Of a stretch of DNA of 64,000 nucleotides, positions 1-57,300 are shown piece after piece (the stretch's first letter is position 1; every line of letters begins with the position of its first letter). The notes under the pieces are model-generated. The model was not told the DNA's origin. It did not search any database and saw nothing but the letters and a program-made list of their open reading frames with translations. This DNA comes from Squalus acanthias (Eukaryota), in the NCBI GenBank assembly GCA_030390025.1, contig CM059434.1, forward strand, positions 95,108,001 to 95,172,000, given 5' to 3'. The position numbers and the translations under genes are program-made.

Positions 1-268
1 TTTGTCTATTGTCCAGTAAGTTAAAATAGTTCTTTTGAAACACAACCAATTATGCAAATGTTGTCTCGCTATTTTCATGTTTATGTTTGTTTTTTATTAC
101 TTGACAAAGGAGAAAAAAGTTGACCTAGTTAGTAGCTGTAGTGAAACATTTTCCTCATTCTTTGCACTTTAGTATCAATAAAATAACCAACTGGTGAAAC
201 TCTCTCAATACTGCAGGAGTTCATGTTTGAGTGCTGTGGTTTTGAATGTTTTTCTTTTTCTTCCTAAG

Positions 269-328
269 TGACGACTACAACAAAAGGGACAACAACCACA
301 CCTATTATTGTTGTCACTACTACACCGG
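269..328 (+). CDS. PTS exon class A (60 nt, VTTTTKGTTTTPIIVVTTTP)
   Basis: ttcctaag|TG...CCGG|gtaagt. Copies start at 269, 2582, 4897, 11246, 20544, 25826, 39379. The acceptor is AAG only. Confidence 0.72.
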
Positions 329-3300
329 GTAAGTGTTGTCTGCTTTCAATATACACCAACAAGTCTCTTCACACTAGTGTGTTTTCCTCAAATTCAGCTT
401 TCAGGCAATGTCAGTCCATTAGTTCAGTCTTGCAGACCCTTGCTTTTATTGGAAAATGGGCGACATCTGAATCTGCAATTAGTTTTTTCAACATCATTTG
501 TGCAGAAAGTGTAATTAAATAGTCTCATCGAGGAACTCTACAGGAATACTAAAGGAAGTTACGTTATAGTGCAGTGATTTTGATTAATTTTTCTTGTTCA
601 GAAGGAATCACCACGACAGTAAAAGCAACTACAACTGGGTCCACTACTGGCTCCACACCGGGTGAGTGAGGGCTTCTTTTGATATCCAGTAGCAAGACCA
701 GTGACACAAGTTATCTTGTTTCAACAACTCCCAGACTGTGGAAATCCATGAATTCACTCCTTGTAGATATTTAGCCAATTTTTCTAGGGGAATTGGTTGA
801 CAACTTAACCATATGGATAAAGATAGATCAGAGGCTGTGCTGAGGACAAATGCTGTGTCCATATTTGTGCCGCCTCTGTCTCTCTTAGTCTCAGCTTAAT
901 CACCAACCTTTACTCAAGGTTTTGGCAATATTTCTCTGACTTTTGAATGAAACGTTGAATTTGCATTCCATGTTGATGGTGGTATTGTTCATACTTTCAA
1001 ATTCCAATAGCTGCATTGCCAAATATTGTCAAAGGATGATCCTCTGACATGTTGTGGTTGTTAATAGTCTTGCTTTTCTTCTTTTGTCCAGTACCTTGAA
1101 ATAGTTCTTTTGATACACAACAAATTATGCAAATATTTTCTTGCCACTCTCATGTTTATGTTGTTCTTCTCTACTTGACAGAGGAGAAAAAAGAGATCTA
1201 GTTAGTCACTCGTAAAATAATTTTCTCATTCTTTGCCCTTTATTATCAATAAAACAGCCAACTCTATTAGTACTGAGGGATTTAAATTTGATTGCTGTGT
1301 TTTGAATATTTTTCCTGTTTGTTCAGAAGTGTTGACTACAACAAAAGGGACAACAACCACACCTATTATTGTTGACACTACCACACCGGGTAAGTGATGT
1401 CTGCTTTCAATATACACCAACAAGTCTCTTCACACTAGTGTGCTTTCCTCAAATTCATGCTTTCAGGCAATGTCAGTCCATTAGTCCAGTCTTGCAGTCT
1501 TATCTTTTGACAGAAAATGGTTGAAAATTTAAGGACATCTGAATCTGCAGTTAGTTTTTCAACATCACTTTTGTAGCAACAGCAATAAAATAGTCTTACC
1601 GAAGAGATCTACAGGAATGCTATAGTTACGTTGCATTGAACTGGTTTCGATTATTTTTCTTGTTCTTCAGAAGGAATCACAACAACTGTGAAAACAACTA
1701 CAACCGGGTCCACTACTGGCTCCACACCGGGTGAGTGAGGGCTTCTTTTGATATAAAGTAGCAAGACCAGTGACACAAGTTATCTTGTTTCAACAACTCC
1801 AGACAGTGGAAGTCCATTACTTCACCCCTTAGAAAACATAGAACATTGAAAAATAGGAGCAGGAGTAGGCCATTCGGCCCTTCGAGCCTGCTCCGCCATT
1901 CAATATGATCATGGCTGATCCTCTATCTCAATACCATATTCCCGCTCTCTCCCCATACCCCTTGATGCCTTTTTTATCTAGAAATCTGTCTATCTTGTAG
2001 ATATTTAGCTCATTCCTTTCAGAGGGAAATGATTGACAACTTAACTGTATGGATAAACCAAGATCAGAGGCTGTGCTGAGGAGAAATGCTGTGTCCATAT
2101 TTGTTCTGCCTCTGACTCTCATACTCTATGCTTCCTCACCAACCTTTACTCAAAGTTTTGGCAATATTTTTCTGACTTTTGAATGAAATGTATAATTTGC
2201 ATTTCATGTTGATGGTGGTATTGTGCATACTTTCAAATTCCAATAGAAGCATTATCAAATATTTTCAAAGGATGATCCCCTTGACATGTTGTGGATGTTA
2301 ATTTTCTTCCCTTTTTGTCTATTGTCCAGTAAGTTAAAATAGTTCTTTTGAAACACAACCAATTATGCAAATGTTGTCTCGCTATTTTCATGTTTATGTT
2401 TGTTTTTTATTACTTGACAAAGGAGAAAAAAGTTGACCTAGTTAGTAGCTGTAGTGAAACATTTTCCTCATTCTTTGCACTTTAGTATCAATAAAATAAC
2501 CAACTGGTGAAACTCTCTCAATACTGCAGGAGTTCATGTTTGAGTGCTGTGGTTTTGAATGTTTTTCTTTTTCTTCCTAAGTGACGACTACAACAAAAGG
2601 GACAACAACCACACCTATTATTGTTGTCACTACTACACCGGGTAAGTGTTGTCTGCTTTCAATATACACCAACAAGTCTCTTCACACTAGTGTGTTTTCC
2701 TCAAATTCAGCTTTCAGGCAATGTCAGTCCATTAGTTCAGTCTTGCAGACCCTTGCTTTTATTGGAAAATGGGCGACATCTGAATCTGCAATTAGTTTTT
2801 TCAACATCATTTGTGCAGAAAGTGTAATTAAATAGTCTCATCGAGGAACTCTACAGGAATACTAAAGGAAGTTACGTTATAGTGCAGTGATTTTGATTAA
2901 TTTTTCTTGTTCAGAAGGAATCACCACGACAGTAAAAGCAACTACAACTGGGTCCACTACTGGCTCCACACCGGGTGAGTGAGGGCTTCTTTTGATATCC
3001 AGTAGCAAGACCAGTGACACAAGTTATCTTGTTTCAACAACTCCCAGACTGTGGAAATCCATGAATTCACTCCTTGTAGATATTTAGCCAATTTTTCTAG
3101 GGGAATTGGTTGACAACTTAACCATATGGATAAAGATAGATCAGAGGCTGTGCTGAGGACAAATGCTGTGTCCATATTTGTGCCGCCTCTGTCTCTCTTA
3201 GTCTCAGCTTAATCACCAACTTTTACTCAAGGTTTTGGCAATATTTCTCTGACTTTTGAATGAAACGTTGAATTTGCATTCCATGTTGATGGTGGTATTG

Positions 3301-6300
3301 TTCATACTTTCAAATTCCAATAGCTGCATTGCCAAATATTGTCAAAGGATGATCCTCTGACATGTTGTGGTTGTTAATAGTCTTGCTTTTCTTCTTTTGT
3401 CCAGTACCTTGAAATAGTTCTTTTGATACACAACAAATTATGCAAATATTTTCTTGCCACTCTCATGTTTATGTTGTTCTTCTCTACTTGACAGAGGAGA
3501 AAAAAAGAGATCTAGTTAGTCACTCGTAAAATAATTTTCTCATTCTTTGCCCTTTATTATCAATAAAACAGCCAACTCTATTAGTACTGAGGGATTTAAA
3601 TTTGATTGCTGTGTTTTGAATATTTTTCCTGTTTGTTCAGAAGTGTTGACTACAACAAAAGGGACAACAACCACACCTATTATTACTGACACTACCACAC
3701 CGGGTAAGTGATGTCTGCTTTCAATATACACCAACAAGTCTCTTCACACTAGTGTGCTTTCCTCAAATTCATGCTTTCAGGCAATGTCAGTCCATTAGTC
3801 CAGTCTTGCAGTCTTATCTTTTGACAGAAAATGGTTGAAAATTTAAGGACATCTGAATCTGCAGTTAGTTTTTCAACATCACTTTTGTAGCAACAGCAAT
3901 AAAATAGTCTTACCGAAGAGATCTACAGGAATGCTATAGTTACGTTGCATTGAACTGCTTTCGATTATTTTTCTTGTTCTTCAGAAGGAATCACAACAAC
4001 TGTGAAAACAACTACAACCGGGTCCACTACTGGCTCCACACCGGGTGAGTGAGGGCTTCTTTTGATATAAAGTAGCAAGACCAGTGACACAAGTTATCTT
4101 GTTTCAACAACTCCCAGACAGTGGAAGTCCATTACTTCACCCCTTAGAAAACATAGAACATTGAAAAATAGGAGCAGGAGTAGGCCATTCGGCCCTTCGA
4201 GCCTGCTCCGCCATTCAATATGATCATGGCTGATCCTCTATCTCAATACCATATTCCCGCTCTCTCCCCATACCCCTTGATGCCTTTTTTATCTAGAAAT
4301 CTGTCTATCTTGTAGATATTTAGCTCATTCCTTTCAGAGGGAAATGATTGACAACTTAACTGTATGGATAAACCAAGATCAGAGGCTGTGCTGAGGAGAA
4401 ATGCTGTGTCCATATTTGTTCTGCCTCTGACTCTCTTACTCTATGCTTCCTCACCAACCTTTACTCAAAGTTTTGGCAATATTTTTCTGACTTTTGAATG
4501 AAATGTATAATTTGCATTTCATGTTGATGGTGGTATTGTGCATACTTTCAAATTCCAATAGAAGCATTATCAAATATTTTCAAAGGATGATCCCCTTGAC
4601 ATGTTGTGGATGTTAATTTTCTTCCCTTTTTGTCTATTGTCCAGTAAGTTAAAATAGTTCTTTTGAAACACAACCAATTATGCAAATGTTGTCTCGCTAT
4701 TTTCATGTTTATGTTTGTTTTTTATTACTTGACAAAGGAGAAAAAAGTTGACCTAGTTAGTAGCTGTAGTGAAACATTTTCCTCATTCTTTTCACTTTAG
4801 TATCAATAAAATAACCAACTGGTGAAACTCTCTCAATACTGCAGGAGTTCATGTTTGAGTGCTGTGGTTTTGAATGTTTTTATTTTTCTTCCTAAGTGAC
4901 GACTACAACAAAAGGGACAACAACCACACCTATTATTGTTGTCACTACTACACCGGGTAAGTGTTGTCTGCTTTCAATATACACCAACAAGTCTCTTCAC
5001 ACTAGTGTGTTTTCCTCAAATTCAGCTTTCAGGCAATGTCAGTCCATTAGTTCAGTCTTGCAGACCCTTGCTTTTATTGGAAAATGGGCGACATCTGAAT
5101 CTGCAATTAGTTTTTTCAACATCACTTGTGCAGAAGGTGTAATTAAATAGTCTTATGGAGGAACTCTACAGGAATACTATAGGAATTTACATTATAGTGT
5201 AGTGGTTTTGATTAATTGTTCTTGTTCTTCAGAAGGAATCACAACAACAGTAAAAGCAACTACAACCGGGTCCACTACTGGCTCCACACCGGGTGAGTGA
5301 GGGCTTCTTTTGCTATCCAGTAGCAAGACCAGTGACACAAGTTATCTTGTTTCAACAACTCCCTGACTGTGGAAATCCATGAATTCACTCCTTGTAGATA
5401 TTTAGCCAATTTTTCTAGGGGGAAATGGTTGACAACTTAACCATATGGATAAAGATAGATCAGAGGCTGTGCTGAGGACAAATGCTGTGTCCATATTTGT
5501 GCCGCCTCTGTCTCTCTTCGTCTCAGCTTAATCACCAACTTTTACTCAAGGTTTTGGCAATATTTCTCTGACTTTTGAATGAAACGTTGAATTTGCATTC
5601 CATGTTGATGGTGGTATTGTTCATACTTTCAAATTCCAATAGCTGCATTGTCAAATATTGTCAAAGGATGATCCTCTGACATGTTGTGGTTGTTAATAGT
5701 CTTGCTTTTCTTCTTTTGTCCAGTACCTTGAAATAGTTCTTTTGATACACAACAAATTATGCAAATATTTTCTTGCCACTCTCATGTTTATGTTGTTCTT
5801 CTCTACTTGACAGAGGAGAAAAAAAGAGATCTAGTTAGTCACTCGTAAAATAATTTTCTCATTCTTTGCCCTTTATTATCAATAAAACAGCCAACTCTAT
5901 TAGTACTGAGGGATTTAAATTTGATTGCTGTGTTTTGAATATTTTTCCTGTTTGTTCAGAAGTGTTGACTACAACAAAAGGGACAACAACCACACCTATT
6001 ATTACTGACACTACCACACCGGGTAAGTGATGTCTGCTTTCAATATACACCAACAAGTCTCTTCACACTAGTGTGCTTTCCTCAAATTCATGCTTTCAGG
6101 CAATGTCAGTCCATTAGTTCAATCTTGTAGTCTTATCTTTTGACAGAAAATGGTTGAAAATTTAAGGACATCTGAATCTGCAGTTAGTTTTTCAACATCA
6201 CTTTTGTAGCAACAGCAATAAAATAGTCTTATAGAGGAAATCTACAGGAATACTATAGCCCAGAAATTAGGCTCCCTGGCTTCCCGCGGGTGCAAGGATC

Positions 6301-9300
6301 CCGCGCGCACCTACCTACCGCGCCTGCCGTTGACCTCTGGGCCCACGGGGACTTCAGCTCCTGGGCCTCCTGCAGCTGCAGGCGCGCAGTGCTTGTGTAT
6401 CCCGGGGCGTAGTTAGTGCGATGCGTCCCCTGGGATCACGTGGGCCATGGAGAGCCAATGGCAGCAGACCATCTTTCATTCATAGATTTGACAGGACCTG
6501 TCAAATCTATGAATTGAAATCAGCCCCAAAACAACACCTAAACTTCAAATAATTTTTTTAAAAAACCATCACATTTTTAAAATAACTATAAGTTAAATAA
6601 ATTAACTACTTTAAACAAAAATTTAAATTTTTGAAAAAGTTAAAATACTTTTTAACAGTGCTAAAAATAAACTTACCTTTCTTTAAAGTATCTAAAAAAG
6701 ATAAACCTGTTGAAATTTTTTTTAAATTGTAATTAATTAACCACTTACCTTGTTAAAAACGGGTCTTGTGCCTCCTTTTTAAAAGCGCAGCTTCTTCCAT
6801 ACTTACCTTCCCGGAGAAACCTGAAAAAAAAACTAAGTTCGCTGCGTGCGCGCAGCCTCTCCCGCGCACGCGGTTCACCTCTCAACCCCTCCCTTCACGA
6901 GACCGGAAGTTCCGGTTTCCCGCGCATGCGCAGTGCATGCAGGAAACCGGCACTTCAGGATGCCTTATGGGTGAGCACACAGCGCGTACTCACCCGGCAA
7001 GTGCCTAATTTTTGGCCCTATAGGTATTTACGTTGTATTGACCTCGTTTCGATTATTTTTCTTGTTCTACAGAAGGAATCACAACAACAGTGGAAACAAC
7101 TACAACCGGGTCCACTACTGGCTCCACACCGGGTGAGTGAGGGCTTCTTTCAATATAAAGTAGCAAGACCAGTGACAAGTTATCTTGTTTCAACAGCTCC
7201 CAGACAGTGGAGTCTCTGCTTACTCACTAACGTTTACTTAACTTTTTTGTAATATTTTATTGTCTTTTGAATGAAATGCACAATTTACAATTCATGTTGC
7301 TAGGGATACTCTGCATACTTCCAAATTCCAATACAATCATTATCAAATCTTGTCAGAGGATGCTCGCTGACACGTTGTGGCCGTTAATATTCTTTCCTAT
7401 TTTCTTTTGTCCAGTAACTTGAAAGAGTTCTTTTGAAACACAACCAATTATGCAAATGCTGCTTTGTCAGACTCGTGTTAATGTTTGCACTTTAGTATTT
7501 GAAGTAAGGAGACCTAGTTAGTAGCTGTAGTCAATAATTTCCTCATTCTTTATGCCCGTTTCTCAATAAAATAACCTAGCGGTGGAACTCTATTAATACT
7601 GCTGGATTTGCAGTCGGAATGCAGCGGTTTAAAATTTTTTTTTCTTCAGAAGTGACGACTACAACAAAAGGAACAACCACAACTGTGTCTACTGCCAGTT
7701 CTACAACTGGTAAGTGATGGTTTCTTTCAATATAGACTAGCAAGTCTTTTGACACAAGTGTGCTTTTTTCAACTTTGGCGAAGAAAATGCCAGGCCATCA
7801 GTTCAGTCCTGTAGACCTGTAGCCCATTCCTTTGGGATGGAATTACTTGAGAAGTTCAGAACATCTCAATCTGCAAGCAATGGCACTTTCACAAGAATTA
7901 CAGAAGCAGTTTTGTGTAAACCTCTCCCCTAACAGCTTGTCCCAGGCGAAGAATAAAACAGTTATGTTTTAACAGTTGCAACTGTAAAATTCCTCTCTTC
8001 TGGCCACCTCTGTCTCATTTAGTCTCTACTTATTCTCACACTCAACTTTTTTACGACATTTTTTCGACCTGCTAATAAAATGTACAATTTGTACGTCACG
8101 CTGATGCTCGTGGGCTGCATACTTCTAAATTCCAAATATTGTCAAATGTTGTTCCCTTGACATGTTGTGGTTGCTCATATTGTGACTATTACCGTTTTGG
8201 TCCAGTAGTATGAAAGACTTCTTTTGAAACACTCTGCAACTGCTGCCTTGCTGCTCTCATATTTATGTTTCCTATTTTTGGTTGGATCATGAGGGTCTAA
8301 TATGTTCTCCTCCTTTTCTGTTACAGAGGTCGTCTGCCATGGCGAATGGTCCCCCTGGTTTAATGAACACACACCTTCTAATGACAGCCCGGGCGATTCT
8401 GAATTACTAGACCGCCTAAGCAATAAATACTGTTCTTCCCCTTTTGATGACATTAGTAACATTCAGTGTCAGTTTGTTGGTGAACCTGAGAGGCCAATAA
8501 GCGAGTCACCAGACAATGTGACGTGCGACAAAGACACAGGGCTCACCTGTATAGTCTCGGAAAGTGCTTTGCAGGAGTCCAAGCTTTGTTTTGACTACAA
8601 AATTCGAGTTTGCTGCGAGAAAAAAACACCAGAGACCACAACAACCAGCAGTACAACCACGGCTTCTGGTAAATGAGAAACTTATGTACGAGTTAATAAT
8701 GTCTCCCATACGTTAAATCAAAGCTGACGTTTTACATCAAGCAGTCAAAGGAGTTAGGATATCTAGTTAGTAGCTGTAGTTAACAATTTCCTCATCATTT
8801 GTGCCTTAGTATCAATAAAATAGCCTAATGGTGAAATTCTCAATACTGCAGGATTTGAAATTAGAGTTCAGAGGTTTTGAATTTTTTGTTGTTTTTGTTC
8901 ACAAGTGGCGACTACAACAACAGAGACAACAACTACACCTGGTATTGCTGACACTACTACAACGGGTAAGTGATGTCTGCTTTCAATGTACACCAGCTAG
9001 TCTGTTTACACCAGTGTGCTTTTCTCAAATTCAGCTTTCAGACAAGGTCAGCCCATTAGTTCAGTCTTGTAGTCCCTCCCTCTTGGGTGAAAATGCTTGA
9101 AAATTTAAAGACATCTGAATCTGCAGTTAGTTTTTTCAACATCACTTGTGCAGAAGGTGTAATTAAATAGTCTTATGGAGGAACTCTACAGGAATACTAT
9201 AGGAATTTACATTATAGTGTAGTGGTTTTGATTAATTGTTCTTGTTCTTCAGAAGGAATCACAACAACAGTAAAAGCAACTACAACCGGGTCCACTACTG

Positions 9301-12300
9301 GCTCCACACCGGGTGAGTGAGGGCTTCTTTTGCTATCCAGTAGCAAGACCAGTGACACAAGTTATCTTGTTTCAACAACTCCCTGACTGTGGAAATCCAT
9401 GAATTCACTCCTTGTAGATATTTAGCCAATTTTTCTAGGGGGAAATGGTTGACAACTTAACCATATGGATAAAGATAGATCAGAGGCTGTGCTGAGGACA
9501 AATGCTGTGTCCATATTTGTGCCGCCTCTGTCTCTCTTCGTCTCAGCTTAATCACCAACTTTTACTCAAGGTTTTGGCAATATTTCTCTGACTTTTGAAT
9601 GAAACGTTGAATTTGCATTCCATGTTGATGGTGGTATTGTTCATACTTTCAAATTCCAATAGCTGCATTGTCAAATATTGTCAAAGGATGATCCTCTGAC
9701 ATGTTGTGGTTGTTAATAGTCTTGCTTTTCTTCTTTTGTCCAGTACCTTGAAATAGTTCTTTTGATACACAACAAATTATGCAAATATTTTCTTGCCACT
9801 CTCATGTTTATGTTGTTCTTCTCTACTTGACAGAGGAGAAAAAAAGAGATCTAGTTAGTCACTCGTAAAATAATTTTCTCATTCTTTGCCCTTTATTATC
9901 AATAAAACAGCCAACCGGTGAAACTCTATTAGTACTGAGGGATTTAAATTTGATTGCTGTGGTTTTGAATATTTTTCCTGTTTGTTCAGAAGTGTTGACT
10001 ACAACAAAAGGGACAACAACCACACCTATTATTGTTGACACTACTACACCGGGTAAGTGATGTCTGCTTTCAATATACACCAACAAGTCTCTTCACACTA
10101 GTGTGCTTTCCTCAAATTCATGCTTTCAGGCAATGTCAGTCCATTAGTTCAGTCTTGCAGTCTTATCTTTTGACAGAAAATGGTTGAAAATTTAAGGACA
10201 TCTGAATCTGCAGTTAGTTTTTCAACATCACTTTTGTAGCAACAGCAATAAAATAGTCTTATGGAAGAGATCTACAGGAATGCTATAGTTACGTTGCATT
10301 GAACTGCTTTCGATTATTTTTCTTGTTCTTCAGAAGGAATCACAACAACTGTGAAAACAACTACAACCGGGTCCACTACTGGCTCCACACCGGGTGAGTG
10401 AGGGCTTCTTTTGATATAAAGTAGCAAGACCAGTGACACAAGTTATCTTGTTTCAACAACTTCCAGACAGTGGAAGTCCATTACTTCACCCCTTAGAAAA
10501 CATAGAACATAGAAAAATAGGAGCAGGAGTAGGCCATTCGGCCCTTCGAGCCTGCTCCGCCATTCAATATGATCATGGCTGATCCTCTATCTCAATACCA
10601 TATTCCCGCTCTCTCCCCATACCCCTTGATGCCTTTTTTATCTAGAAATCTGTCTATCTTGTAGATATTTAGCTCATTCCTTTCAGAGGGAAATGATTGA
10701 CAACTTAACTGTATGGATAAACCAAGATCAGAGGCTGTGCTGAGGAGAAATGCTGTGTCCATATTTGTTCTGCCTCTGACTCTCTTACTCTCTGCTTCCT
10801 CACCAACCTTTACTCAAATTTTTGGCAATATTTTTCTGACTTTTGAATGAAATGTATAATTTGCATTTCATGTTGATGGTGGTATTGTGCATACTTTCAA
10901 ATTCCAATAGAAGCATTATCAAATATTTTCAAAGGATGATCCCCTTGACATGTTGTGGATGTTAATTTTCTTCCCTTTTTGTCTATTGTCCAGTAAGTTA
11001 AAATAGTTCTTTTGAAACACAACCAATTATGCAAATGTTGTCTCGCTATTTTCATGTTTATGTTTGTTTTTTATTACTTGACAAAGGAGAAAAAAGTTGA
11101 CCTAGTTAGTAGCTGTAGTGAAACATTTTCCTCATTCTTTGCACTTTAGTATCAATAAAATAGCCAACTGGTGAAACTCTCTCAGTACTGCAGGAGTTCA
11201 TGTTTGAGTGCTGTGGTTTTGAATGTTTTTATTTTTCTTCCTAAGTGACGACTACAACAAAAGGGACAACAACCACACCTATTATTGTTGTCACTACTAC
11301 ACCGGGTAAGTGATGTCTGCTTTCAATATACACCACAAGTCTCTTCACACTAGTGTGCTTTCCTCAAATTCATGCTTTCAGGCAATGTCAGTCCATTAGT
11401 TCAGTCTTGCAGTCTTATCTTTTGACAGAAAATGTTGAAAATTTAAGGACATCTGAATCTGCAGTTAGTTTTTCAACATCACTTTTGTAGCAACAGCAAT
11501 AAAATAGTCTTATAGAGGAAATCTACAGGAATACTATGGCCCAGAAATTAGGCTCCCTGGCTTCCCGCGGGTGCAAGGATCCCGCGCGCACCTACCTACT
11601 GCGCCTGCCGTTGACCTCTGGGCCCACGGGGACTTCAGCTCCTGGGCCTCCTGCAGCTGCAGGCGCGCAGTGCTTGTGTATCCCGGGGCGTAGTTAGTGC
11701 GATGCGTCCCCTGGGATCACGTGGGCCATGGAGAGCCAATGGCAGCAGACCATCTTTCATTCATAGATTTGACAGGACCTGTCAAATCTATGAATTGAAA
11801 TCAGCCCCAAAACAACACCTAAACTTCAAATAATTTTTTTTAAAAACCATCACATTTTTAAAATAACTATAAGTTAAATAAATTAACTACTTTAAACAAA
11901 AATTTAAATTTTTGAAAAAGTTAAAATACTTTTTAACAGTGCTAAAAATAAACTTACCTTTCTTTAAAGTATCTAAAAAAGATAAACCTGTTGAAATTTT
12001 TTTAAAATTGTAATTAATTAACCACTTACCTTGTTAAAAACGGGTCTTGTGCCTCCTTTTTAAAAGCGCAGCTTCTTCCATACTTACCTTCCCGGAGAAA
12101 CCTGAAAAAAAAACTAAGTTCGCTGCGTGCGCGCAGCCTCTCCCGCGCACGCGGTTCACCTCTCAACCCCTCCCTTCACGAGACCGGAAGTTCCGGTTTC
12201 CCGCGCATGCGCAGTGCATGCAGGAAACCGGCACTTCAGGATGCCTTATGGGTGAGCACACAGCGCGTACTCACCCGGCAAGTGCCTAATTTTTGGCCCT

Positions 12301-45300: not shown

Positions 45301-48300
45301 TCAATCTGCAAGCAATGGCACTTTCACAAGAATTACAGAAGCAGTTTTGTGTAAACCTCTCCCCTAACAGCTTGTCCCAGGCGAAGAATAAAACAGTTAT
45401 GTTTTAACAGTTGCAACTGTAAAATTCCTCTCTTCTGGCCACCTCTGTCTCATTTAGTCTCTACTTATTCTCACACTCAACTTTTTTACGACATTTTTTC
45501 GACCTGCTAATAAAATGTACAATTTGTACGTCACGCTGATGCTCGTGGGCTGCATACTTCTAAATTCCAAATATTGTCAAATGTTGTTCCCTTGACATGT
45601 TGTGGTTGCTCATATTGTGACTATTACCGTTTTGGTCCAGTAGTATGAAAGACTTCTTTTGAAACACTCTGCAACTGCTGCCTTGCTGCTCTCATATTTA
45701 TGTTTCCTATTTTTGGTTGGATCATGAGGGTCTAATATGTTCTCCTCCTTTTCTGTTACAGAGGTCGTCTGCCATGGCGAATGGTCCCCCTGGTTTAATG
45801 AACACACACCTTCTAATGACAGCCCGGGCGATTCTGAATTACTAGACCGCCTAAGCAATAAATACTGTTCTTCCCCTTTTGATGACATTAGTAACATTCA
45901 GTGTCAGTTTGTTGGTGAACCTGAGAGGCCAATAAGCGAGTCACCAGACAATGTGACGTGCGACAAAGACACAGGGCTCACCTGTATAGTCTCGGAAAGT
46001 GCTTTGCAGGAGTCCAAGCTTTGTTTTGACTACAAAATTCGAGTTTGCTGCGAGAAAAAAACACCAGAGACCACAACAACCAGCAGTACAACCACGGCTT
46101 CTGGTAAATGAGAAACTTATGTACGAGTTAATAATGTCTCCCATACGTTAAATCAAAGCTGACGTTTTACATCAAGCAGTCAAAGGAGTTAGGATATCTA
46201 GTTAGTAGCTGTAGTTAACAATTTCCTCATCATTTGTGCCTTAGTATCAATAAAATAGCCTAATGGTGAAATTCTCAATACTGCAGGATTTGAAATTAGA
46301 GTTCAGAGGTTTTGAATTTTTTGTTGTTTTTGTTCACAAGTGGCGACTACAACAACAGAGACAACAACTACACCTGGTATTGCTGACACTACTACAACGG
46401 GTAAGTGATGTCTGCTTTCAATGTACACCAGCAAGTCTGTTTACACCAGTGTGCTTTTCTCAAATTCAGCTTTCAGACAAGGTCAGCCCATTAGTTCAGT
46501 CTTGTAGTCCCTCCCTCTTGGGTGAAAATGCTTGAAAATTTAAAGACATCTGAATCTGCAGTTAGTTTTTTCAACATCACTTGTGCAGAAGGTGTAATTA
46601 AATAGTCTTATGGAGGAACTCTACAGGAATACTATAGGAATTTACATTATAGTGTAGTGGTTTTGATTAATTGTTCTTGTTCTTCAGAAGGAATCACAAC
46701 AACAGTAAAAGCAACTACAACTGGGTCCACTACTGGCTCCACACCGGGTGAGTGAGGGCTTCTTTTGCTATCCAGTAGCAAGACCAGTGACACAAGTTAT
46801 CTTGTTTCAACAACTCCCTGACTGTGGAAATCCATGAATTCACTCCTTGTAGATATTTAGCCAATTTTTCTAGGGGGAAATGGTTGACAACTTAACCATA
46901 TGGATAAAGATAGATCAGAGGCTGTGCTGAGGACAAATGCTGTGTCCATATTTGTGCCGCCTCTGTCTCTCTTCGTCTCAGCTTAATCACCAACTTTTAC
47001 TCAAGGTTTTGGCAATATTTCTCTGACTTTTGAATGAAACGTTGAATTTGCATTCCATGTTGATGGTGGTATTGTTCATACTTTCAAATTCCAATAGCTG
47101 CATTGTCAAATATTGTCAAAGGATGATCCTCTGACATGTTGTGGTTGTTAATAGTCTTGCTTTTCTTCTTTTGTCCAGTACCTTGAAATAGTTCTTTTGA
47201 TACACAACAAATTATGCAAATATTTTCTTGCCACTCTCATGTTTATGTTGTTCTTCTCTACTTGACAGAGGAGAAAAAAAGAGATCTAGTTAGTCACTCG
47301 TAAAATAATTTTCTCATTCTTTGCCCTTTATTATCAATAAAACAGCCAACTCTATTAGTACTGAGGGATTTAAATTTGATTGCTGTGTTTTGAATATTTT
47401 TCCTGTTTGTTCAGAAGTGTTGACTACAACAAAAGGGACAACAACCACACCTATTATTACTGACACTACCACACCGGGTAAGTGATGTCTGCTTTCAATA
47501 TACACCAACAAGTCTCTTCACACTAGTGTGCTTTCCTCAAATTCATGCTTTCAGGCAATGTCAGTCCATTAGTTCAGTCTTGCAGTCTTATCTTTTGACA
47601 GAAAATGGTTGAAAATTTAAGGACATCTGAATCTGCAGTTAGTTTTTCAACATCACTTTTGTAGCAACAGCAATAAAATAGTCTTATAGAGGAAATCTAC
47701 AGGAATACTATGGCCCAGAAATTAGGCTCCCTGGCTTCCCGCGGGTGCAAGGATCCCGCGCGCACCTACCTACTGCGCCTGCCGTTGACCTCTGGGCCCA
47801 CGGGGACTTCAGCTCCTGGGCCTCCTGCAGCTGCAGGCGCGCAGTGCTTGTGTATCCCGGGGCGTAGTTAGTGCGATGCGTCCCCTGGGATCACGTGGGC
47901 CATGGAGAGCCAATGGCAGCAGACCATCTTTCATTCATAGATTTGACAGGACCTGTCAAATCTATGAATTGAAATCAGCCCCAAAACAACACCTAAACTT
48001 CAAATAATTTTTTTAAAAAACCATCACATTTTTAAAATAACTATAAGTTAAATAAATTAACTACTTTAAACAAAAATTTAAATTTTTGAAAAAATTAAAA
48101 TACTTTTTAACAGTGCTAAAAATAAACTTACCTTTCTTTAAAGTATCTAAAAAAGATAAACCTGTTGAAATTTTTTTAAAATTGTAATTAATTAACCACT
48201 TACCTTGTTAAAAACGGGTCTTGTGCCTCCTTTTTAAAAGCGCAGCTTCTTCCATACTTACCTTCCCGGAGAAACCTGAAAAAAAAACTAAGTTCGCTGC

Positions 48301-51300
48301 GTGCGCGCAGCCTCTCCCGCGCACGCGGTTCACCTCTCAACCCCTCCCTTCACGAGACCGGAAGTTCCGGTTTCCCGCGCATGCGCAGTGCATGCAGGAA
48401 ACCGGCACTTCAGGATGCCTTATGGGTGAGCACACAGCGCGTACTCACCCGGCAAGTGCCTAATTTTTGGCCCTATAGGTATTTACGTTGTATTGACCTC
48501 GTTTCGATTATTTTTCTTGTTCTACAGAAGGAATCACAACAACAGTGGAAACAACTACAACCGGGTCCACTACTGGCTCCACACCGGGTGAGTGAGGGCT
48601 TCTTTCAATATAAAGTAGCAAGACCAGTGACAAGTTATCTTGTTTCAACAGCTCCCAGACAGTGGAGTCTCTGCTTACTCACTAACGTTTACTTAACTTT
48701 TTTGTAATATTTTATTGTCTTTTGAATGAAATGCACAATTTACAATTCATGTTGCTAGGGATACTCTGCATACTTCCAAATTCCAATACAATCATTATCA
48801 AATCTTGTCAGAGGATGCTCGCTGACACGTTGTGGCCGTTAATATTCTTTCCTATTTTCTTTTGTCCAGTAACTTGAAAGAGTTCTTTTGAAACACAACC
48901 AATTATGCAAATGCTGCTTTGTCAGACTCGTGTTAATGTTTGCACTTTAGTATTTGAAGTAAGGAGACCTAGTTAGTAGCTGTAGTCAATAATTTCCTCA
49001 TTCTTTATGCCCGTTTCTCAATAAAATAACCTAGCGGTGGAACTCTATTAATACTGCTGGATTTGCAGTCGGAATGCAGCGGTTTAAAAATTTTTTTTCT
49101 TCAGAAGTGACGACTACAACAAAAGGAACAACCACAACTGTGTCTACTGCCAGTTCTACAACTGGTAAGTGATGGTTTCTTTCAATATAGACTAGCAAGT
49201 CTTTTGACACAAGTGTGCTTTTTTCAACTTTGGCGAAGAAAATGCCAGGCCATCAGTTCAGTCCTGTAGACCTGTAGCCCATTCCTTTGGGATGGAATTA
49301 CTTGAGAAGTTCAGAACATCTCAATCTGCAAGCAATGGCACTTTCACAAGAATTACAGAAGCAGTTTTGTGTAAACCTCTCCCCTAACAGCTTGTCCCAG
49401 GCGAAGAATAAAACAGTTATGTTTTAACAGTTGCAACTGTAAAATTCCTCTCTTCTGGCCACCTCTGTCTCATTTAGTCTCTACTTATTCTCACACTCAA
49501 CTTTTTTACGACATTTTTTCGACCTGCTAATAAAATGTACAATTTGTACGTCACGCTGATGCTCGTGGGCTGCATACTTCTAAATTCCAAATATTGTCAA
49601 ATGTTGTTCCCTTGACATGTTGTGGTTGCTCATATTGTGACTATTACCGTTTTGGTCCAGTAGTATGAAAGACTTCTTTTGAAACACTCTGCAACTGCTG
49701 CCTTGCTGCTCTCATATTTATGTTTCCTATTTTTGGTTGGATCATGAGGGTCTAATATGTTCTCCTCCTTTTCTGTTACAGAGGTCGTCTGCCATGGCGA
49801 ATGGTCCCCCTGGTTTAATGAACACACACCTTCTAATGACAGCCCGGGCGATTCTGAATTACTAGACCGCCTAAGCAATAAATACTGTTCTTCCCCTTTT
49901 GATGACATTAGTAACATTCAGTGTCAGTTTGTTGGTGAACCTGAGAGGCCAATAAGCGAGTCACCAGACAATGTGACGTGCGACAAAGACACAGGGCTAA
50001 CCTGTATAGTCTCGGAAAGTGCTTTGCAGGAGTCCAAGCTTTGTTTTGACTACAAAATTCGAGTTTGCTGCGAGAAAAAAACACCAGAGACCACAACAAC
50101 CAGCAGTACAACCACGGCTTCTGGTAAATGAGAAACTTATGTACGAGTTAATAATGTCTCCCATACGTTAAATCAAAGCTGACGTTTTACATCAAGCAGT
50201 CAAAGGAGTTAGGATATCTAGTTAGTAGCTGTAGTTAACAATTTCCTCATCATTTGTGCCTTAGTATCAATAAAATAGCCTAATGGTGAAATTCTCAATA
50301 CTGCAGGATTTGAAATTAGAGTTCAGAGGTTTTGAATTTTTTGTTGTTTTTGTTTACAAGTGGCGACTACAACAACAGAGACAACAACTACACCTGGTAT
50401 TGCTGACACTACTACAACGGGTAAGTGATGTCTGCTTTCAATGTACACCAGCAAGTCTGTTTACACCAGTGTGCTTTTCTCAAATTCAGCTTTCAGACAA
50501 GGTCAGCCCATTAGTTCAGTCTTGTAGTCCCTCCCTCTTGGGTGAAAATGCTTGAAAATTTAAAGACATCTGAATCTGCAGTTAGTTTTTTCAACATCAC
50601 TTGTGCAGAAGGTGTAATTAAATAGTCTTATGGAGGAACTCTACAGGAATACTATAGGAATTTACATTATAGTGTAGTGGTTTTGATTAATTGTTCTTGT
50701 TCTTCAGAAGGAATCACAACAACAGTAAAAGCAACTACAACCGGGTCCACTACTGGCTCCACACCGAGTGAGTGAGGGCTTCTTTTGCTATCCAGTAGCA
50801 AGACTCTCTTAGTCTCTGCTTCCTCACCAATCTTTACACAAATTTTTGACAATATATCTCTGACTTTTGAATGAAATGTAGAATTTGCATTTCATGTTGA
50901 TGGTGGTACTGTGCATACTTGCAAATGCCAATAAAATCATTATCAAGCATTGACATGTTCTGGTTGTAGATATCCTTCCCTTTTTGTCTTTTGTCCAGTA
51001 ACTTGAAATAGTTCTTTTCAAGCAGAACCAATTATATAAATAAAAACAGAAATTGCTGGAAATACTCAGCAGGTCAGGCAGCATCTGTGGAGAGAGAAAC
51101 AGAGTTAACGTTTCAGGTCAATGACCCTTCGTTAGAACAGGACCAGTTCTGACGAAGGGTCATCGACCTGAAACGTTAACTGTTTCTCTCTCCACAGCTG
51201 CTGCTTGACCTGCTGAGCATTTCCAGCAATTTCTGTTTTTATTTCAGATTTCTAGCATCCGCAGTATTTTGCTTTTCAATTATATAAATGTTGTCTTTGC

Positions 51301-54300
51301 ACTTTCAAGTTTTTTTTTACTTGACAAAGGAGAAAAAAGTTGATCTAGTTAGTAGCTGTAGTGAAACATTTTCCTCATTCGTTGCACTTTAGTATCAATA
51401 AAATAGACAACTGGTGAAACTCTCTCAATACTGCAGGATTTCAAGTTTGAGTGCTGTGGTTTTGATTGGTTTTATTTTTCTTCCAAAGTGACGACTCCAC
51501 CAAAAGGGACAACAACGACACCTGTTATTGCTGACACTACTACACCGGGTAAGTGATGTCTTCTTTCAATATACACCAGCAAGTCTGTTCACAACAGTGT
51601 GCTTTTCTCCAATTCAGCTGTCAGGCAATGCCAGTCCATTAGTTCAGACTTGTTGCTTTTGCTGGAAAATGGTTGAAAACTTAGACACCTGAATCTGCAA
51701 TTAGTTTTTTCAACATTATTTGTGCAGAAAGTGAATTAAATAATCTTATGGAGGAACTCTACGGGAATACTATAGGAATTTACGTTGTATTGAAGTGGTT
51801 TTGATGATTTTTCTTGTTCTTCAGAAGGAATCACAACAGTGAAAACAACTACAACCGGGTCCACTACTGGCTCCACACCGGGTGAGTGAGGGCTTCTTTC
51901 GATATCCAGTAGCAAGACCAGTGACACAAGTTATCTTGTTTCAACAACTCCCAGACAGTGGAAGTCCATTACTTCACCCCTTGTAGATATTTAGCCCAAT
52001 CCTTTCAGAGGGAAATGGTTGACAAGTTAACTATTTGAATGAAGCTCGATCAGAGGCTCTGCATGAGAAATACTGTGTCCATGTTTGTGCCGCCTGTCTC
52101 TCTTAGTCTCTGCTTCCTCACCAACCTTTACTCAAAGTTTTGACAATATATCTCTGACTTTTGAATGAAATGTAGAATTTACATTTCATGTTGATGGTGG
52201 TATTGTTCATATTTTCAAATTCCAATAGAATCATTATCAAATATTGTCAAAGGATGATCCCCTTGACATGTTGTGGCTGTTAATATTCTTCCTTGTTGAA
52301 ATAGTTCTTTTGAAACACAACCAATTATGCAAATGTTGTCTCGCCACTTTCATGTTTATGTTTGTTTTTTATTACTTGACAAAGGAGAAAAAAGTTGATC
52401 TAGTTAGTATCTGTAGTGAAACATTTTCCTCATTCTTTGCACGTATCAATAAAATAGCCAACTGGTGAAACTCTCTCAATACTGCAGGAGTTGGGAAAAT
52501 GCTGGAATCTATTGTAAAGGATGCAATAACTGGGCACTTAGAAACTAATAGTAAGATTGGGCAGAGTCAACATGGATTTATGAAAGGGAAATCCTGTTTG
52601 ACAAACCTATTGGAGTTCTTTGAGGATGTAACTAGTGGAGTAGACAAAGGGGAACCGGTAGGTGTGGTGTATTTGGATTTTCAGAAGGCCTTCGATAAGG
52701 TCCCACACAAGAGGTTGGTGAACAAAGTTAGGGCACATGGAATTGGGGGTAATATACTAGCATGGATTGAGAATTGCTTAACAGACAGAAAACAAAGAGT
52801 AGGGATAAACGGGTCTTTTTCAGGATGGCAGGCTGTGACTAGTGGGGTACCGCAAGGTTCAGTGCTTGGGCCCCAGCTATTCACAATCTATATCAATGAT
52901 TTGAATAAGGGGACTAAATGTAACATTTCCAAATTTGCTGACGATACAAAGCTAGGTGGCAGCGTCAGTTGTGAAGAGGATGTGAAGAGGCTTCAAGGGG
53001 ATCTCGACAGGCTCAGTGAGTGGGCGAGAACATGGCAGATGGAATATAATGTGGATAAATGAGAAGTTATGCACTTTGGTAGAATAAACAGAAAGGCAGA
53101 GTATTTCCTAAATGGTGAAAGATTGGGGAATGCAGATGCTCAAAGGGACCTGTGTGTCCTTGTACATGAGTCACTGAAAGTGAATGTGCAGGTGCAGCAA
53201 GCCATTAGGAAGGCAAATGGTATGCTGGCCTTCATTACAAGAGGATTTGAGTACAGGAGTAAAGAAGTCTTACTCCAATTATATAGGGCCTTGGTGAGAC
53301 CACACCTGGAGTACTGTGTACAATTTTGGTCTCCTTACCGAAAGGAAGGATATACTTGCCATAGAGGGAGTGCAACGAAGGTTCACAAGATTGATTCCTG
53401 GGATGGCGGGACTGTCGTATGAGAAGAGATTGAGTAAACTAGGCCTGTATTCACTTGAATTCAGAAGAATGAGAGGGGATCTCATTGAAGTATACAAAAT
53501 TATTACAGGGCTTGATAGGGTGGATGCTGGGCGAATGTTTCCCTTGGCTGGGGAGTCTAGAACCAGGGGCCACAGCCTCAGGATAAAGAGTAGGCCATTC
53601 AGGACTGAGATGAGAAGAAATTTCTTCACACAGAGGGTGGTGAATCTTTGGAATTCTCTACCCCAGATGGCTGTGGAGGCTCAGTCATTGGGTATATTCA
53701 AAACAGAAGTCGATAGATTTCTGACTAGTAAGGGCATCAAGGGATATGGTCCAAAAATGTGTGGGTTAGGTTGATTTGGCTATGATAAATTGACCCTTAG
53801 TGTTAGGGGGGGATTAAATATGTGGGGTTATGGGGATAGGATGGGATATGTTAGGGGGAATTAAATACGTGGGGTTACGGGGGTAGGGTGGGATATGTGT
53901 ACTGTGGGGATTAAAGCAGAGACAGGGTACTGGATTTGGATGATCAGCCATGATCGTATTGAATGGCGGAGCAGGCTCGACGGGCCGAATGGCCTACTCC
54001 TGCTCCTAGATTCTATGTTTCTATGTGATAGGGCCGGTGAATGGAGTTGAGGCAGAAGATCAGCCATGATCTCATTGAATGGCGGAGCAGGCTCAAAGGG
54101 CCGAATGGCCTAATCCTGCTCCTATTTCCTATGCTCTTATGTTCTTAGTTCAAGTTTGAGTGCTGTGGTTTTGATTGATTTTATTTTTCTTCCGAAGTGA
54201 CGACTCCACCAAAACGGACAACAACGACACCTATTATTGCTGACACTACTACACCGGGTAAGTGATGTCTGCTTTCAATATACACCAGCAAGTCTGTTCA

Positions 54301-57300
54301 CACCAGTGTGCTTTTCTCCAATTCAGCTTTCAGGCAATGCCAGTCCATTAATTCAGTCTTGCAGACCCTTGCTATTGTTGGGAAATGGTTGAAAACTTAG
54401 ACATCTGAATCTGCAATTAATTTTTTCAACATCATTTGTGCAGAAAGTGTAATTAAATAATCTTATGGAGGAACGCTACAGGAATACTATAGGAATTTAC
54501 GTTATAATGTTGTGGTTTTGATTAATTTTGTTGTTCTTCAGAAGGAATCACCACAACAGTGAAAGCAACTACAACCGGGTCCACTACTGGCTCCACACCG
54601 GGTGAGTGAGGGCTTCTTTCGATATCCAGTAGCAAGACCAGTGACACAAGTTATCTTGTTGCAACAACTCCCAGACAGTGGAAGTACATTACTTCACTCC
54701 TTGTAGAAATTTAGCCCAATCCTTTCAGAGGGAAATGGTTGACAACTTAACTATATGGATAAACCTAGATCAGAGGCTGTGGTGAGGAGAAAAGCTGTGT
54801 CCATGTTTGTGCCACCTCTGTCTCTCTTAGTCTCAGCTTAATCACCAACATTTACTCAGATTTTTGACAGTATATCTATGACTTTTGAATGAAACGTATA
54901 ATTTGCATTTCATGTTAATGGTGGTATTGTTTCAAATTCCAGGGACTGGATTTTACCTTTTGGTGCAGACTAGGGGCGGGACAGCTTCCTTACGGGTTCC
55001 GATCCCACCCCCAATGACGTCCGACGCACAGACGCTATTTTGCATCAATTGACCTTGTTAAGCCCGCCCTGCGGGCTTGCCAGCCAATTAAGAGAAAGCC
55101 GGTGTCAGATGACGTCAGTTGATGATGCATCATCTGCTGGTTTTCTTAAAGGGGCCACACTCAATTTTTTTTGACAGGTGATTTTTCAGTGTTTGACAGC
55201 ATTGAGGTGCTGCAAACACTGACAATCACTGTACAAAGGTGAGCCCTTGCACCCAGACCCTCCAGTGACTCCCTCCTTAGGCTAGAACAGATGGCAGCTA
55301 CAGGTGAGGTTACAGAAGCGATCTGTCACTGGTGAGAGAGGTTATCCCAATGAGGTGGGACTACACAAACACTTCAAAACTTATTACCTACAGAAAAGAC
55401 TAACTACATTAAAAATGATTTTCCCAACATTTTCTTACCTCTGAAACTCACCAGTGTACCATTGGATCCTTCACACCACTTCTGCTGCTGTCATCAATGA
55501 AGAAACATTACAGTAGACCCACAGCACGCGACACTAACCCTGGCATGGTGTCCGGATGTCGGGAAGCCTGCAGTAGACCTGGCAAAATTGGAAAAAGCCT
55601 CTTAACTGCCTGTTAACATCCTGTTAACAAGCAGTTAAGTACCTATAATCTTCTTCCCACCGCGAGATGTCGGGTCCATGCGCAATTCGAGGACCCGACA
55701 CCTGGGAAGATTGTTTGGAGGCGGGTCGACAGCGAATTTCTGACCCGGTCAATCTTTGCGATTTTGCTGGATGTCCCACCTCCAAACCGCCCCCTGAGCG
55801 CCGGCAAAATTCCGGCCCAATAGAATCATTATCAAATATTGTCAAAGGATGTTCCCCTTGACCATGCTGTGGTTGTTACTATTCTTGCTTTTCATCCTTT
55901 GTCCAGTACTTTGATGTAGTTCTTTTGGTACACAACGAATTATGCAAATATTGTCTTGCCATTAGTTCAGTCTTGGAGAGCCTTTCTTTCCGGTGAAAAT
56001 GGTTGAAAACTTAGACATCTACAGTTAGTTTTTTCAACATCACTTGTGCAGAAAGGGTAATTAAATAGTCTTATGGTGGAACGCTACATGAATACTATAG
56101 GAATTTACGTTGAGGTGAGTTGTTTTGATAAATTTTGTTGTTCTTCAGAAGGAATCACTACAACAGTGAAAGCAACTACAACCGGGTCCACTACTGGCTC
56201 CACACCGGGTGAGTGAGGGCTTCTTTCGATATACAGTAGCAAAACCAGTGACACATCTTGTTTCAACAGCTCCCAGACAGTGGAAGCCCATTACTTCACA
56301 CCTTGTAGATATTTAGCTCATTCCTTCCAGAAAGAAATGATTGACAACTTAACTATATGAATAAACCTAGATCAGAGGCTGTGCTGAGGAGAAATGCTGT
56401 GTCCATGTTTGTATCGCCTCTGTCTCTCTTAGTGTCTGCTTCCTCACCAACATTTATTCAACGTTTTGACAATATATATCTGACTTTTGAATGAAATGTA
56501 CAATTTGCATTTCATGTTGATGGTGGTATTGAGTATACTTTTAAATTCCAATAGAAGCATTATCAAATATTGTCAAAGGATGATCCCCTTGACATGTTGT
56601 GGTTTTTAATATTCTTCCCTTTTTGTCTATTGTGCAGTAACTTGAAATAGTTCTTTTGAAACACAACCAATTATGCAAATATTGTCTCGCCATTTTCATG
56701 TTTATGTTTGGTATTTTTACTTGACAAAGGAGAAAAAGTTGATCTAGTTAATAGCTGCAGTGAAACATTTTCCTCATTCTTTGCACTTTAGTATCAATAA
56801 AATACCCAACTGGTGAAACTCTCTCAATACTGCAGGATTTCAAGTTTGAGTGCTGTGGTTTTGACTTTTTATTTTTCTTCCGAAGTGACGACTCCACCAA
56901 AAGGGACAACAACCACACCTGTTATTGCTGACACTACTACACCGGGTAAGTGATGTCTTCTGGTGGAACTCTACAGGATTACTATAGGAATTTATGTTAA
57001 GGTCAATGTTCCCTCTACGTTTTTTTTGTACTGAGCAGGCCACGAACTCCTTTGACCACGACCTTTTTGTCTGTGGGCAAATTGTACAACAACAACTTTT
57101 ACAACAACATCTTTTACACCAACAACGGCAGCAGCATCAACCACATAAAAGCATAGATACAGTAATTCCATAATACCACCCCACCTTCTCAAATTGAGAC
57201 AATCAGACAAGGTTCTATACAAGTTTAACATAACCTCTCTGCTTTTGAATTCGATTCCTCTAAAAATGAACCCCAGTGCTTCATTTGCAATTTTATGGCT

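Follow-up and report, generated by a model that had tools for sequence, protein, structure and literature searches.

Acceptor sites are ranked by how readily they are chosen, CAG>TAG>AAG>GAG (PMC2699507), and 1.98% of human coding introns carry a plausible NAGNAG (PMC2279118). In TSC2 c.2967-1G>T, the loss of the proximal site is absorbed by the distal one (PMC9184681). Multi-exon PTS (Pro/Thr/Ser-rich) domains are described in chicken and zebrafish Muc13 (PMC1552070), Xenopus MucXS/Otogl (PMC5789918) and chicken MUC2 (PMC3549977), and Xenopus FIM-C.1 is polymorphic by splicing (PMC7177656). We analyzed a shark (Squalus acanthias) locus in which both subjects meet. The window is the whole stretch of DNA analyzed, 64,000 nucleotides long.

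A mucin gene built from mini-exons

Judged from its sequence, the window is the middle of a gel-forming mucin gene of the MUC2/MUC5 type. VWD, C8 and TIL matches were found in 6/6 tested ORFs upstream (one VWD slightly below the curated cut-off), and the best PDB matches among mucins were MUC2, MUC5B and MUC5AC. Five downstream ORFs gave C8 and Cys_knot matches, with no match in one of them, and a fourth VWD exon was not identified among these five. The closest named proteins are 'mucin-2-like' of Pristiophorus japonicus (81% over CysD) and then Carcharodon carcharias (70%); an uncharacterized protein of Mustelus asterias (65%) is also among the closest relatives. Four other mucin-like regions of 100 kb each (C10 92.54, 92.88, 94.20 and 94.45 Mb) held fewer than three PTS mini-exons per strand.

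The whole gene comprises 130 PTS mini-exons of 45-63 nt and 11 CysD exons. A model that includes every exon has no stop codon in its translation, and the PTS of the modelled protein spans 2618 aa, 1472 of them Thr/Ser. In the window, 77 Pro/Thr/Ser-rich phase-1 exons lie between 269 and 61376. The CysD exons of the window have a CAG acceptor and a GTAAAT donor, and a class D mini-exon stands immediately downstream of each (10/10).

The preliminary description had counted 77 PTS mini-exons, 57 with CAG-AAG and 20 with AAG only, and these numbers were confirmed together with their coordinates. The CAG-AAG start is present in all 34 exons of the 'G-I-T' (G) family and in 23/43 of the 'V-T-T' (V) family, while the other 20 lack the proximal AG and read CCT (7), CAC (9), TAC (1, at 50361), CCA (1, at 51489) or CCG (2, at 54198 and 56886). 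Gene-wide, a NAGNAG is found in 96/130 exons and AAG alone in 32/130, with class A (CCT) reaching 18 copies. The accompanying statement that all PTS exons carry a NAGNAG was too broad: it is untrue for the 20 AAG-only window exons and for two further exons of the gene that lack the distal AG, CAG-AAC at G000:C10:95178792 and TAG-TCA at 95175054. Donors and frames had been described as intact, and a GT(A/G)AGT donor with an in-frame length was indeed present in 77/77, although the exon search itself required both. For that reason, overlooked broken copies were sought with four exon motifs, whose matches fell inside called exons in 86/86, 55/55, 11/13 and 33/34 cases.

The features are as follows; the AAG-only exons rest on sequence, plus RNA contigs where a line names a run.

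8327..50123, +, ten CysD exons of 342 nt each (PF13330, E 4e-17), starting at 8327, 13608, 17625, 22907, 28423, 32442, 36460, 41742, 45762 and 49782
602..61376, +, 57 CAG-AAG tandem-acceptor PTS mini-exons, 48-63 nt long when counted from the proximal AG (34 G-family, 23 V-family), interspersed with AAG-only and CysD exons; proximal use in RNA contigs
269..328, +, class A exon, CCT-AAG
2582..2641, +, class A exon, CCT-AAG
4897..4956, +, class A exon, CCT-AAG
11246..11305, +, class A exon, CCT-AAG; one X6 contig, ambiguous
20544..20603, +, class A exon, CCT-AAG
25826..25885, +, class A exon, CCT-AAG
39379..39438, +, class A exon, CCT-AAG
8906..8965, +, class D exon, CAC-AAG, after a CysD exon
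14187..14246, +, class D exon, CAC-AAG; X5 CysD-to-D joint (any of the 10 D copies fits)
18204..18263, +, class D exon, CAC-AAG
23486..23545, +, class D exon, CAC-AAG
29002..29061, +, class D exon, CAC-AAG
33021..33080, +, class D exon, CAC-AAG
37039..37098, +, class D exon, CAC-AAG
42321..42380, +, class D exon, CAC-AAG
46341..46400, +, class D exon, CAC-AAG
50361..50420, +, class D exon, TAC-AAG, otherwise identical to the CAC copies; X8 CysD-to-D joint, X4 and X8 D-to-G joint (any D copy fits)
51489..51548, +, class A-prime exon, CCA-AAG
54198..54257, +, class A-prime exon, CCG-AAG
56886..56945, +, class A-prime exon, CCG-AAG; in X6, a G exon joined at the distal AAG

Joints in RNA contigs

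Our model is that mini-exons without the proximal CAG are probably included through the AAG that follows in frame three bases later, each one Glu shorter (class D and one CCG exon on the basis of RNA contigs, class A likely as well), and that the losses likely go back to about two tolerated point mutations copied by tandem duplication. We used seven runs (among X1-X8) of assembled contigs; these were unlabelled or guessed as RNA, and we assume that they are RNA because they contain GT..AG joints at exon ends. The proposed rescue by the distal AAG was supported for class D (two studies) and for the CCG exon 56886 (one run), while class A (CCT) is ambiguous. A CysD exon is joined to a D exon at the distal AAG in X5 (13949|14187) and in X8 (50123|50361), two separate studies. 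One side of the X5 joint is a whole D exon with the upstream intron still attached, so we take this contig to be partly spliced RNA. The CysD joint has ten adjacent fits, all of them D exons, and the A-prime joint only one, 56886, to which a G exon is joined at the distal AAG in X6 (depth 443.8 versus 556.6 and 960.4 for its neighbours). A D-to-G joint at the proximal site was present in X4 and X8. For class A, a single X6 contig (depth about 61.5 by subtraction) joins a G exon to the start of 11246, but could equally be placed beyond the window's downstream end, at a CAG exon entered through its distal site.

Several artefacts were considered. In a protein search of assembly G000, identical CysD copies occurred within the window only, and the CysD-to-D joint therefore does not come from a retrocopy present in the assembly. 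CAC-AAG is present in unspliced contigs of other individuals (X1 12961-14436, 0 differences), and an assembly error was therefore rejected. We also rejected pseudo-exon status for the AAG-only exons, given their conserved donors and RNA joints, and the use of cryptic AGs up to 110 nt upstream, which would cause a frameshift or stop in all window classes; an in-frame upstream TAG exists solely for a CAA exon upstream of the window. The X2 joint 10393|11243 (GT..CT) was rejected as a non-canonical splice; we interpret it as a CAG exon joined at its proximal site but misplaced on class A, which has the same first bases. Likewise, 50731|51846 is not a skip, as it is a switch between paralogous exons within an unspliced contig.

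The surroundings of the AAG are consistent with its use. Over the 20 nt that precede the used site, pyrimidine content is 0.80-0.89 in the AAG-only classes of the window versus 0.70-0.73 in CAG V exons, and no AG occurs for 32-37 nt upstream of the used site. In AAG-only exons, a strong pyrimidine tract is followed by no AG earlier than that of the AAG, so scanning would pick it.

Alternatively, the AAG-only exons could be weak cassettes whose skipping far exceeds that of CAG exons, differs between tissues or individuals, and shortens the PTS chain. We consider this unlikely. It would fit with AAG being a weaker acceptor than CAG (PMC2699507), and with the length variation through splicing that has been suggested in chicken Muc13 (PMC1552070) and is stated for Xenopus FIM-C.1 (PMC7177656). 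The contigs that carry the A-prime base are shallow in X1 (19.4) and X2 (7.3) against 131-268 nearby, and deep in X6 (443.8), a weak hint at low inclusion, contig depth being a poor measure of expression from which inclusion levels are not derivable. A C-to-G joint in 6/7 runs fits a skip of CysD plus D, but also a downstream adjacent pair with one mismatch, where the absence of a mismatch is uninformative since differences were uncounted in a comparable split piece. In turn, two pairs of adjacent G exons can account for the G-to-G joints of X3, X4 and X8, which were rejected as skips, and both clearly non-adjacent joints skip CAG-bearing exons: exon 60970 to 95175054, leaving out 61317, in X1, and in X5 a short G exon to another G exon further along. 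These two could be array alleles. The D exon is the sole spliced partner of the CysD donor among the joints listed, and the AAG-only exons retain strong tracts and intact donors. For the preferential skipping put forward earlier, no joint was assignable solely to such a skip among the joints listed for the seven contig runs.

Two observations on coverage belong here, neither of which counts as evidence. No CysD-to-G joint was among the joints listed for the seven runs, and an assembler can drop alternatives of similar length. Runs X3, X4 and X8 have little or no cover at 51403-51669 and 56743-57000, and are blank for A-prime joints.

A broader version holds that the Glu-less AAG-only acceptors, above all those after CysD, which other sharks seem to share, are an old built-in dial: exons or CysD-plus-D blocks would be skippable, and one 130-exon allele would yield many mucin lengths and CysD spacings by tissue. 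We regard this as decidedly improbable.

It is very unlikely, in our assessment, that the two acceptors of CAG-AAG exons are both used, in regulated proportions, to tune the number of Glu residues and the charge of the PTS. Arithmetically, the charge variation suggested in the preliminary description is real at the peptide level, as 95/117 PTS Glu are junction residues and all-distal use would leave 22, but we saw no sign that it is used. Disordered regions tolerate NAGNAGs better (PMC2279118), the distal site of a single CAG exon may have been used in one contig of X6, and the predicted sawshark model has units with and without Glu in both families (7/9 G and 4/10 V units with Glu; such counts in shark models come from P0002-P0004 only). 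Against this, unambiguous joints into CAG-AAG or CAG-CAG exons were all proximal among the joints listed for the seven runs, in which contigs can hide minor forms, so the alternative inclusion of one Glu claimed for these exons was not seen. The distal AG is lost in two exons of the gene and absent from 25/26 exons of a paralog, and hence is not a maintained feature. The 32 AAG-only exons take 32 residues from about 2600, beside 1472 Thr/Ser. Charge would be dominated by these 1472 Thr/Ser O-glycan sites, which further argues against such tuning.

Origin and copying of the proximal losses

In the gene and in its paralog, a phase-1 intron splits a Glu codon and leaves its final two bases at the exon start. 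An AAG forms there wherever a codon beginning with G (Val, Gly) comes next. The tandem acceptor is thus likely a by-product of a split Glu codon and a G-starting codon, then duplicated. In the neighbouring paralog, 23/26 PTS exons start with AA from the split Glu codon, and 1/26 has a NAGNAG. The 57/77 in the window is far above the human rate of 1.98%, yet it reflects the copying of one or two ancestral exons and does not amount to 57 independent draws.

The losses had been described as repeated and arising in several ways. Five variant triplets do exist, but they are not independent, amounting to about two events in the window and three in the gene. Identity reaches 99.7-99.9% among the class D copies (n=10; 910 nt compared) and 98.3-99.0% among the class A copies (n=7; 290 nt compared). 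One upstream intron type is common to CCT, CCA and CCG exons (86-92% over 44 nt, versus at most 82%, mean 73%, to other classes). With copies this alike and a shared CCN intron, the 20 AAG-only exons cannot be counted as independent. About two mutations probably underlie the five triplets: A>C would have given CCG, later decaying to CCA and CCT, and G>C would have given CAC and then TAC, with unequal crossing-over amplifying both to 10+10 window copies. In trees that include exon sequence, the CAG class B is nested within the CCN group, so A>C may have occurred twice, or B may be a mosaic; the AU test does not reject a single CCN origin (p 0.49), nor does it prove one. CAG is the majority state and the paralog's exons start with Glu; the trees are midpoint-rooted, and class D is Glu-less in other sharks' models.

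We compared event counts, obtained by parsimony on repeat trees, with an expectation from deep intron in which non-homologous flanks were masked. The V family had 3 AG-destroying events versus 1.8-1.9 expected (P>=3 0.27-0.30) and the G family 0 versus 1.25-1.36 (P0 0.26-0.29), a difference between families that is not significant. In contrast to these roughly neutral proximal-AG losses, the donor hexamers are conserved, with 2 changes versus 9.2-9.8 expected (P 0.003-0.006). As a proximal change would cost a single residue of a disordered, O-glycosylated chain, it may be nearly neutral and drift.

A further possibility is that loss of the junction Glu was itself selected at particular positions (after CysD, and in class A), the acceptor change being the means. 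The losses are confined to the V family (0/34 G exons in the window), and the unit after CysD is Glu-less in 8/8 PTS-followed CysD units of the Pristiophorus, Carcharodon and Mustelus models. However, the event counts match the neutral expectation, the V/G difference lacks significance, copy number tracks duplication history, and one old loss inherited by all sharks accounts for the shared state, the orthologs being known from protein models alone. We find selection of this kind barely credible. The Glu-less unit in three other sharks' models suggests that class D is old, which fits tolerance of the loss and also selection.

Significance and comparison with known systems

The array is a natural example of tandem-acceptor buffering, in which each of the tens of copies of a splice-site mutation loses one Glu and not an exon. 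For annotators, AAG-only repeat exons here are not pseudo-exons. Should graded skipping prove true, the control of mucin length by splicing, proposed in 2006 for chicken Muc13, would be testable in this array, whose value would lie in near-identical exons that differ mainly at the acceptor.

As in the TSC2 and NAGNAG cases, an in-frame tandem AG leaves the product one codon shorter when the proximal site is lost, and CAG is preferred over AAG. Unlike those cases, the shark state is fixed in the assembly and other individuals and has spread over 32/130 duplicated exons. The PTS of mammalian MUC2, MUC5AC and MUC5B is one large exon, whereas that of the shark is 130 exons of 45-63 nt. The gene resembles the multi-exon PTS mucins (Muc13, MucXS/Otogl, MUC2 and FIM-C.1) in having one repeat per exon, and splicing-based length variation is proposed or reported there; it differs in having far more exons, and the consulted portions of the papers on Muc13, MucXS/Otogl, chicken MUC2 and FIM-C.1 do not mention tandem acceptors. 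Both the rescue mechanism and the gene layout have precedents, and the rescue is an ordinary, known one.

PTS exons and acceptors of the shark mucin gene

We scanned the window for short, in-frame Pro/Thr/Ser-rich segments bounded by AAG and a GT(A/G)AG donor, requiring donor and frame to be intact. The scan recovered 77 PTS exons, of which 57 start with the tandem acceptor CAG-AAG, while the proximal AG is absent from the other 20 (CCT, 7; CAC, 9; TAC, 1; CCA, 1; CCG, 2). The tandem acceptors and AAG-only exons are real, and the coordinates of the 20 agree with those in the preliminary description. The CAG is kept in 34/34 exons of the G family, and the V family (n = 43) holds all the losses. 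As a check for copies missed by the scan, matches to four exon motifs fell inside called exons in 86/86, 55/55, 11/13 and 33/34 cases. The window also contains ten CysD exons of 342 nt each (PF13330, E 4e-17), each lying directly before a class D (CAC or TAC) exon. One G exon, at 50708-50767, ends in A rather than G, a weaker donor context, and its joining to the next exon would encode Met.

The flanks add 46 PTS exons upstream and 7 downstream, for a gene total of 130, a count that includes three atypical exons added by hand. The window occupies G000:C10:95108001-95172000 of a 3.7 Gb genome. The PTS domain comprises 130 mini-exons and 11 CysD exons over ~100 kb (G000:C10:95079944-95178851 in contig coordinates, spanning the window and the flanking stretches L008-L011), with AgBg units repeated upstream and CD-g-B-g units within the window. 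Its acceptors are 95 CAG-AAG, 1 CAG-CAG, 32 AAG-only (18 CCT, 9 CAC, 2 CCG, 1 TAC, 1 CCA, 1 CAA) and 2 without a distal AG. Two exons outside the window, and the repeats inserted in window introns, are as follows.

Exons in the flanks and inserted repeats in window introns
L008:1944-2003, first PTS exon, CAA-AAG
L011:3054-3116, exon of the V family, TAG acceptor, 63 nt, in frame, spliced in run X1
10515-10690, inserted repeat
11540-12300, inserted repeat
51038-51244, inserted repeat
52490-54150, inserted repeat
54941-55820, inserted repeat
57000-58850, inserted repeat

In the TAG exon the shared core is preceded by one base fewer and followed by one extra G, which keeps the 63 nt and the frame. 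The inserts are putative SINE-like and inverted-repeat elements and a putative LINE-like fragment; some were amplified together with the array and can serve as lineage markers. Where deletions have taken out entire V or G exons (54602-56148 and 56946-58896), G exons now sit side by side and an A-prime (CCA or CCG) exon precedes a long insertion.

Ten of eleven flanking ORFs tested matched VWD, C8, TIL, CysD or cystine-knot/DAN families. The best mucin structure matches of the gene are MUC2, MUC5B and MUC5AC, and the nearest named proteins are shark 'mucin-2-like' models, with 81% to 65% identity over CysD. The all-exon gene model is stop-free; its PTS part (2618 aa) has 37 Asp, 111 Lys/Arg, 1472 Thr/Ser and 117 Glu, against 22 Glu if every acceptor were distal. 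Two further mucin-like genes adjoin, one on the minus strand (G000:C10:95395905-95454851) and one on the plus strand from ~95257000. A CysD match near 95316816 lies inside a 1088-aa open frame, which is likely a single-exon PTS.

Origin of the tandem site and number of losses

The introns of this gene are phase 1, and its PTS exons open with AA or AG finishing a Glu codon. An AAG arises wherever the codon after the split Glu begins with G (Val, Gly). In the minus-strand paralog, 23 of 26 PTS mini-exons start with AA, mostly after a TAG acceptor, and just one of the 26 has a NAGNAG, created by a single base change. As the paralog has the same split-Glu habit without the tandem site, we infer that the 57/77 CAG-AAG exons go back to just one or two ancestors, multiplied by repeated copying.

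The class D loss probably reflects one G>C event, because the copies are 99.7-99.9% identical across 910 nt and the TAC copy equals the CAC copies apart from the acceptor triplet. The CCT, CCA and CCG exons all carry A>C at the middle base and are preceded by introns of a single type, with 86-92% identity within the group and at most 82% to others. A single origin of this group is not rejected (p-AU 0.49), while a common origin of every loss is, weakly (p-AU 0.043). Since trees that include the exon place class B, which has the CAG, inside the CCN group, there may have been two A>C changes, or class B may be a recombinant. Gene conversion weakens every tree of these repeats. The CAA-AAG exon is a third independent loss. 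Of the repeated CAG loss proposed previously, the 20 lossy exons stand, but not the separate losses: in the window, about two mutations were probably amplified by duplication.

Deep intron sequence supplied the neutral rate for judging the event counts. In the V family, 3 AG-destroying events were observed against 1.8-1.9 expected (P 0.27-0.30; by hand, about 0.11-0.13 if there were four); the G family had 0, with 1.25-1.36 expected (P 0.26-0.29). By these counts, neither constraint on the proximal AG nor an excess of losses was detectable. Donors are constrained: their hexamers show 2 changes against 9.2-9.8 expected (P 0.003-0.006).

Splice joints and use of the distal AAG

Of 14 runs, none of them recorded as RNA, seven from three studies were compared with two parts of the window, all as assembled contigs. 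At 9900-14650 (runs X1, X2, X5, X6), 9 of 13 joints lie at exon ends, and at 49000-57000 (X6, X3, X4, X8) at least five do, among 15 of 18 joints; accompanying tables add a few more. The joint from CysD into class D enters at the distal AAG in X5 (13949|14187, exon end|exon start) and X8 (50123|50361); the X5 contig contains the entire D exon with its upstream intron still attached. A class D to G joint is present in X4 and X8. In X6, a G exon is joined to the distal AAG of the CCG exon 56886 at depth 443.8. Against the gene model, the CysD joint matches D exons only, and 56886 is the sole adjacent fit of the A-prime joint. Another X6 contig matches 17 class A (CCT) exons or, alternatively, distal use at one CAG exon. 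The suggestion that the distal AAG rescues these exons is therefore supported for two of the three classes, D and A-prime.

In the window AAG-only classes, pyrimidines make up 80-89% of the 20 nt that precede the site in use, compared with 70-73% in CAG V exons, and the 32-37 nt upstream of that site are AG-free; a good tract therefore leads directly to the AAG as its first AG. AGs farther upstream were ruled out as alternative acceptors, as they would give frameshifts or stops.

Wherever a joint leads unambiguously into a CAG-bearing exon (B, C-like, G, short-G partners and the CAG-CAG exon), it is proximal, which gives no support to splicing with plus or minus one Glu. Low-level wobble may still occur, since contigs can lose a minor 3-nt variant. 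Preferential skipping of AAG-only exons fared no better: both clearly non-adjacent joints skip CAG-bearing exons instead. At window 60970-61376 and L011:3054-3462, an X1 contig joins exon 60970 to exon 95175054, passing over the CAG-AAG exon 61317, into which a loose X6 contig end runs on; in X5, the short G exon 58897 is connected to a G exon farther along. These joints may represent skipping or array alleles. Six of the seven runs have a C-to-G joint. Apart from one mismatch it matches the exon pair 95176078-95176428, adjacent in the gene, and the C-like exon of these contigs has the 3-nt insertion of the copy in that pair; skipping of CysD together with D would give this joint as well. Contigs with the A-prime diagnostic base have depths of 19.4 (X1) and 7.3 (X2) against 131-268 in neighbours, a hint of variable inclusion, although X6 differs and depth is a poor measure.

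Other sharks and known systems

In a predicted sawshark protein, the same PTS units occur with and without Glu (with Glu: G, 7/9; V, 4/10). In four predicted models from three shark species (P0002-P0005), the unit that follows CysD has no Glu in 8/8 PTS-followed cases and opens with Val or Ala, as in the Glu-less class D of the window. This absence in predicted proteins suggests that class D is old.

Cassette splicing is a feature of FIM-B.1. FIM-C.1 is described as polymorphic through alternative splicing (PMC7177656), and a multi-exon PTS with one repeat per exon occurs in chicken and zebrafish Muc13, where length change via splicing was proposed (PMC1552070), in Xenopus MucXS (PMC5789918) and in chicken MUC2 (PMC3549977); as described there, these domains are smaller than that of the shark. 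The accessible text of PMC4948705 and PMC4200417 contains nothing on acceptors, and among the open-access articles listed, none deals with tandem acceptors of repeat exons in mucins or with this shark gene. Disordered regions are reported to tolerate tandem acceptors better (PMC2279118), and the acceptor preference order is given as CAG>TAG>AAG>GAG (PMC2699507). In TSC2, a distal AG is described as compensating for the lost proximal one (PMC9184681), as we read the shark AAG-only exons.
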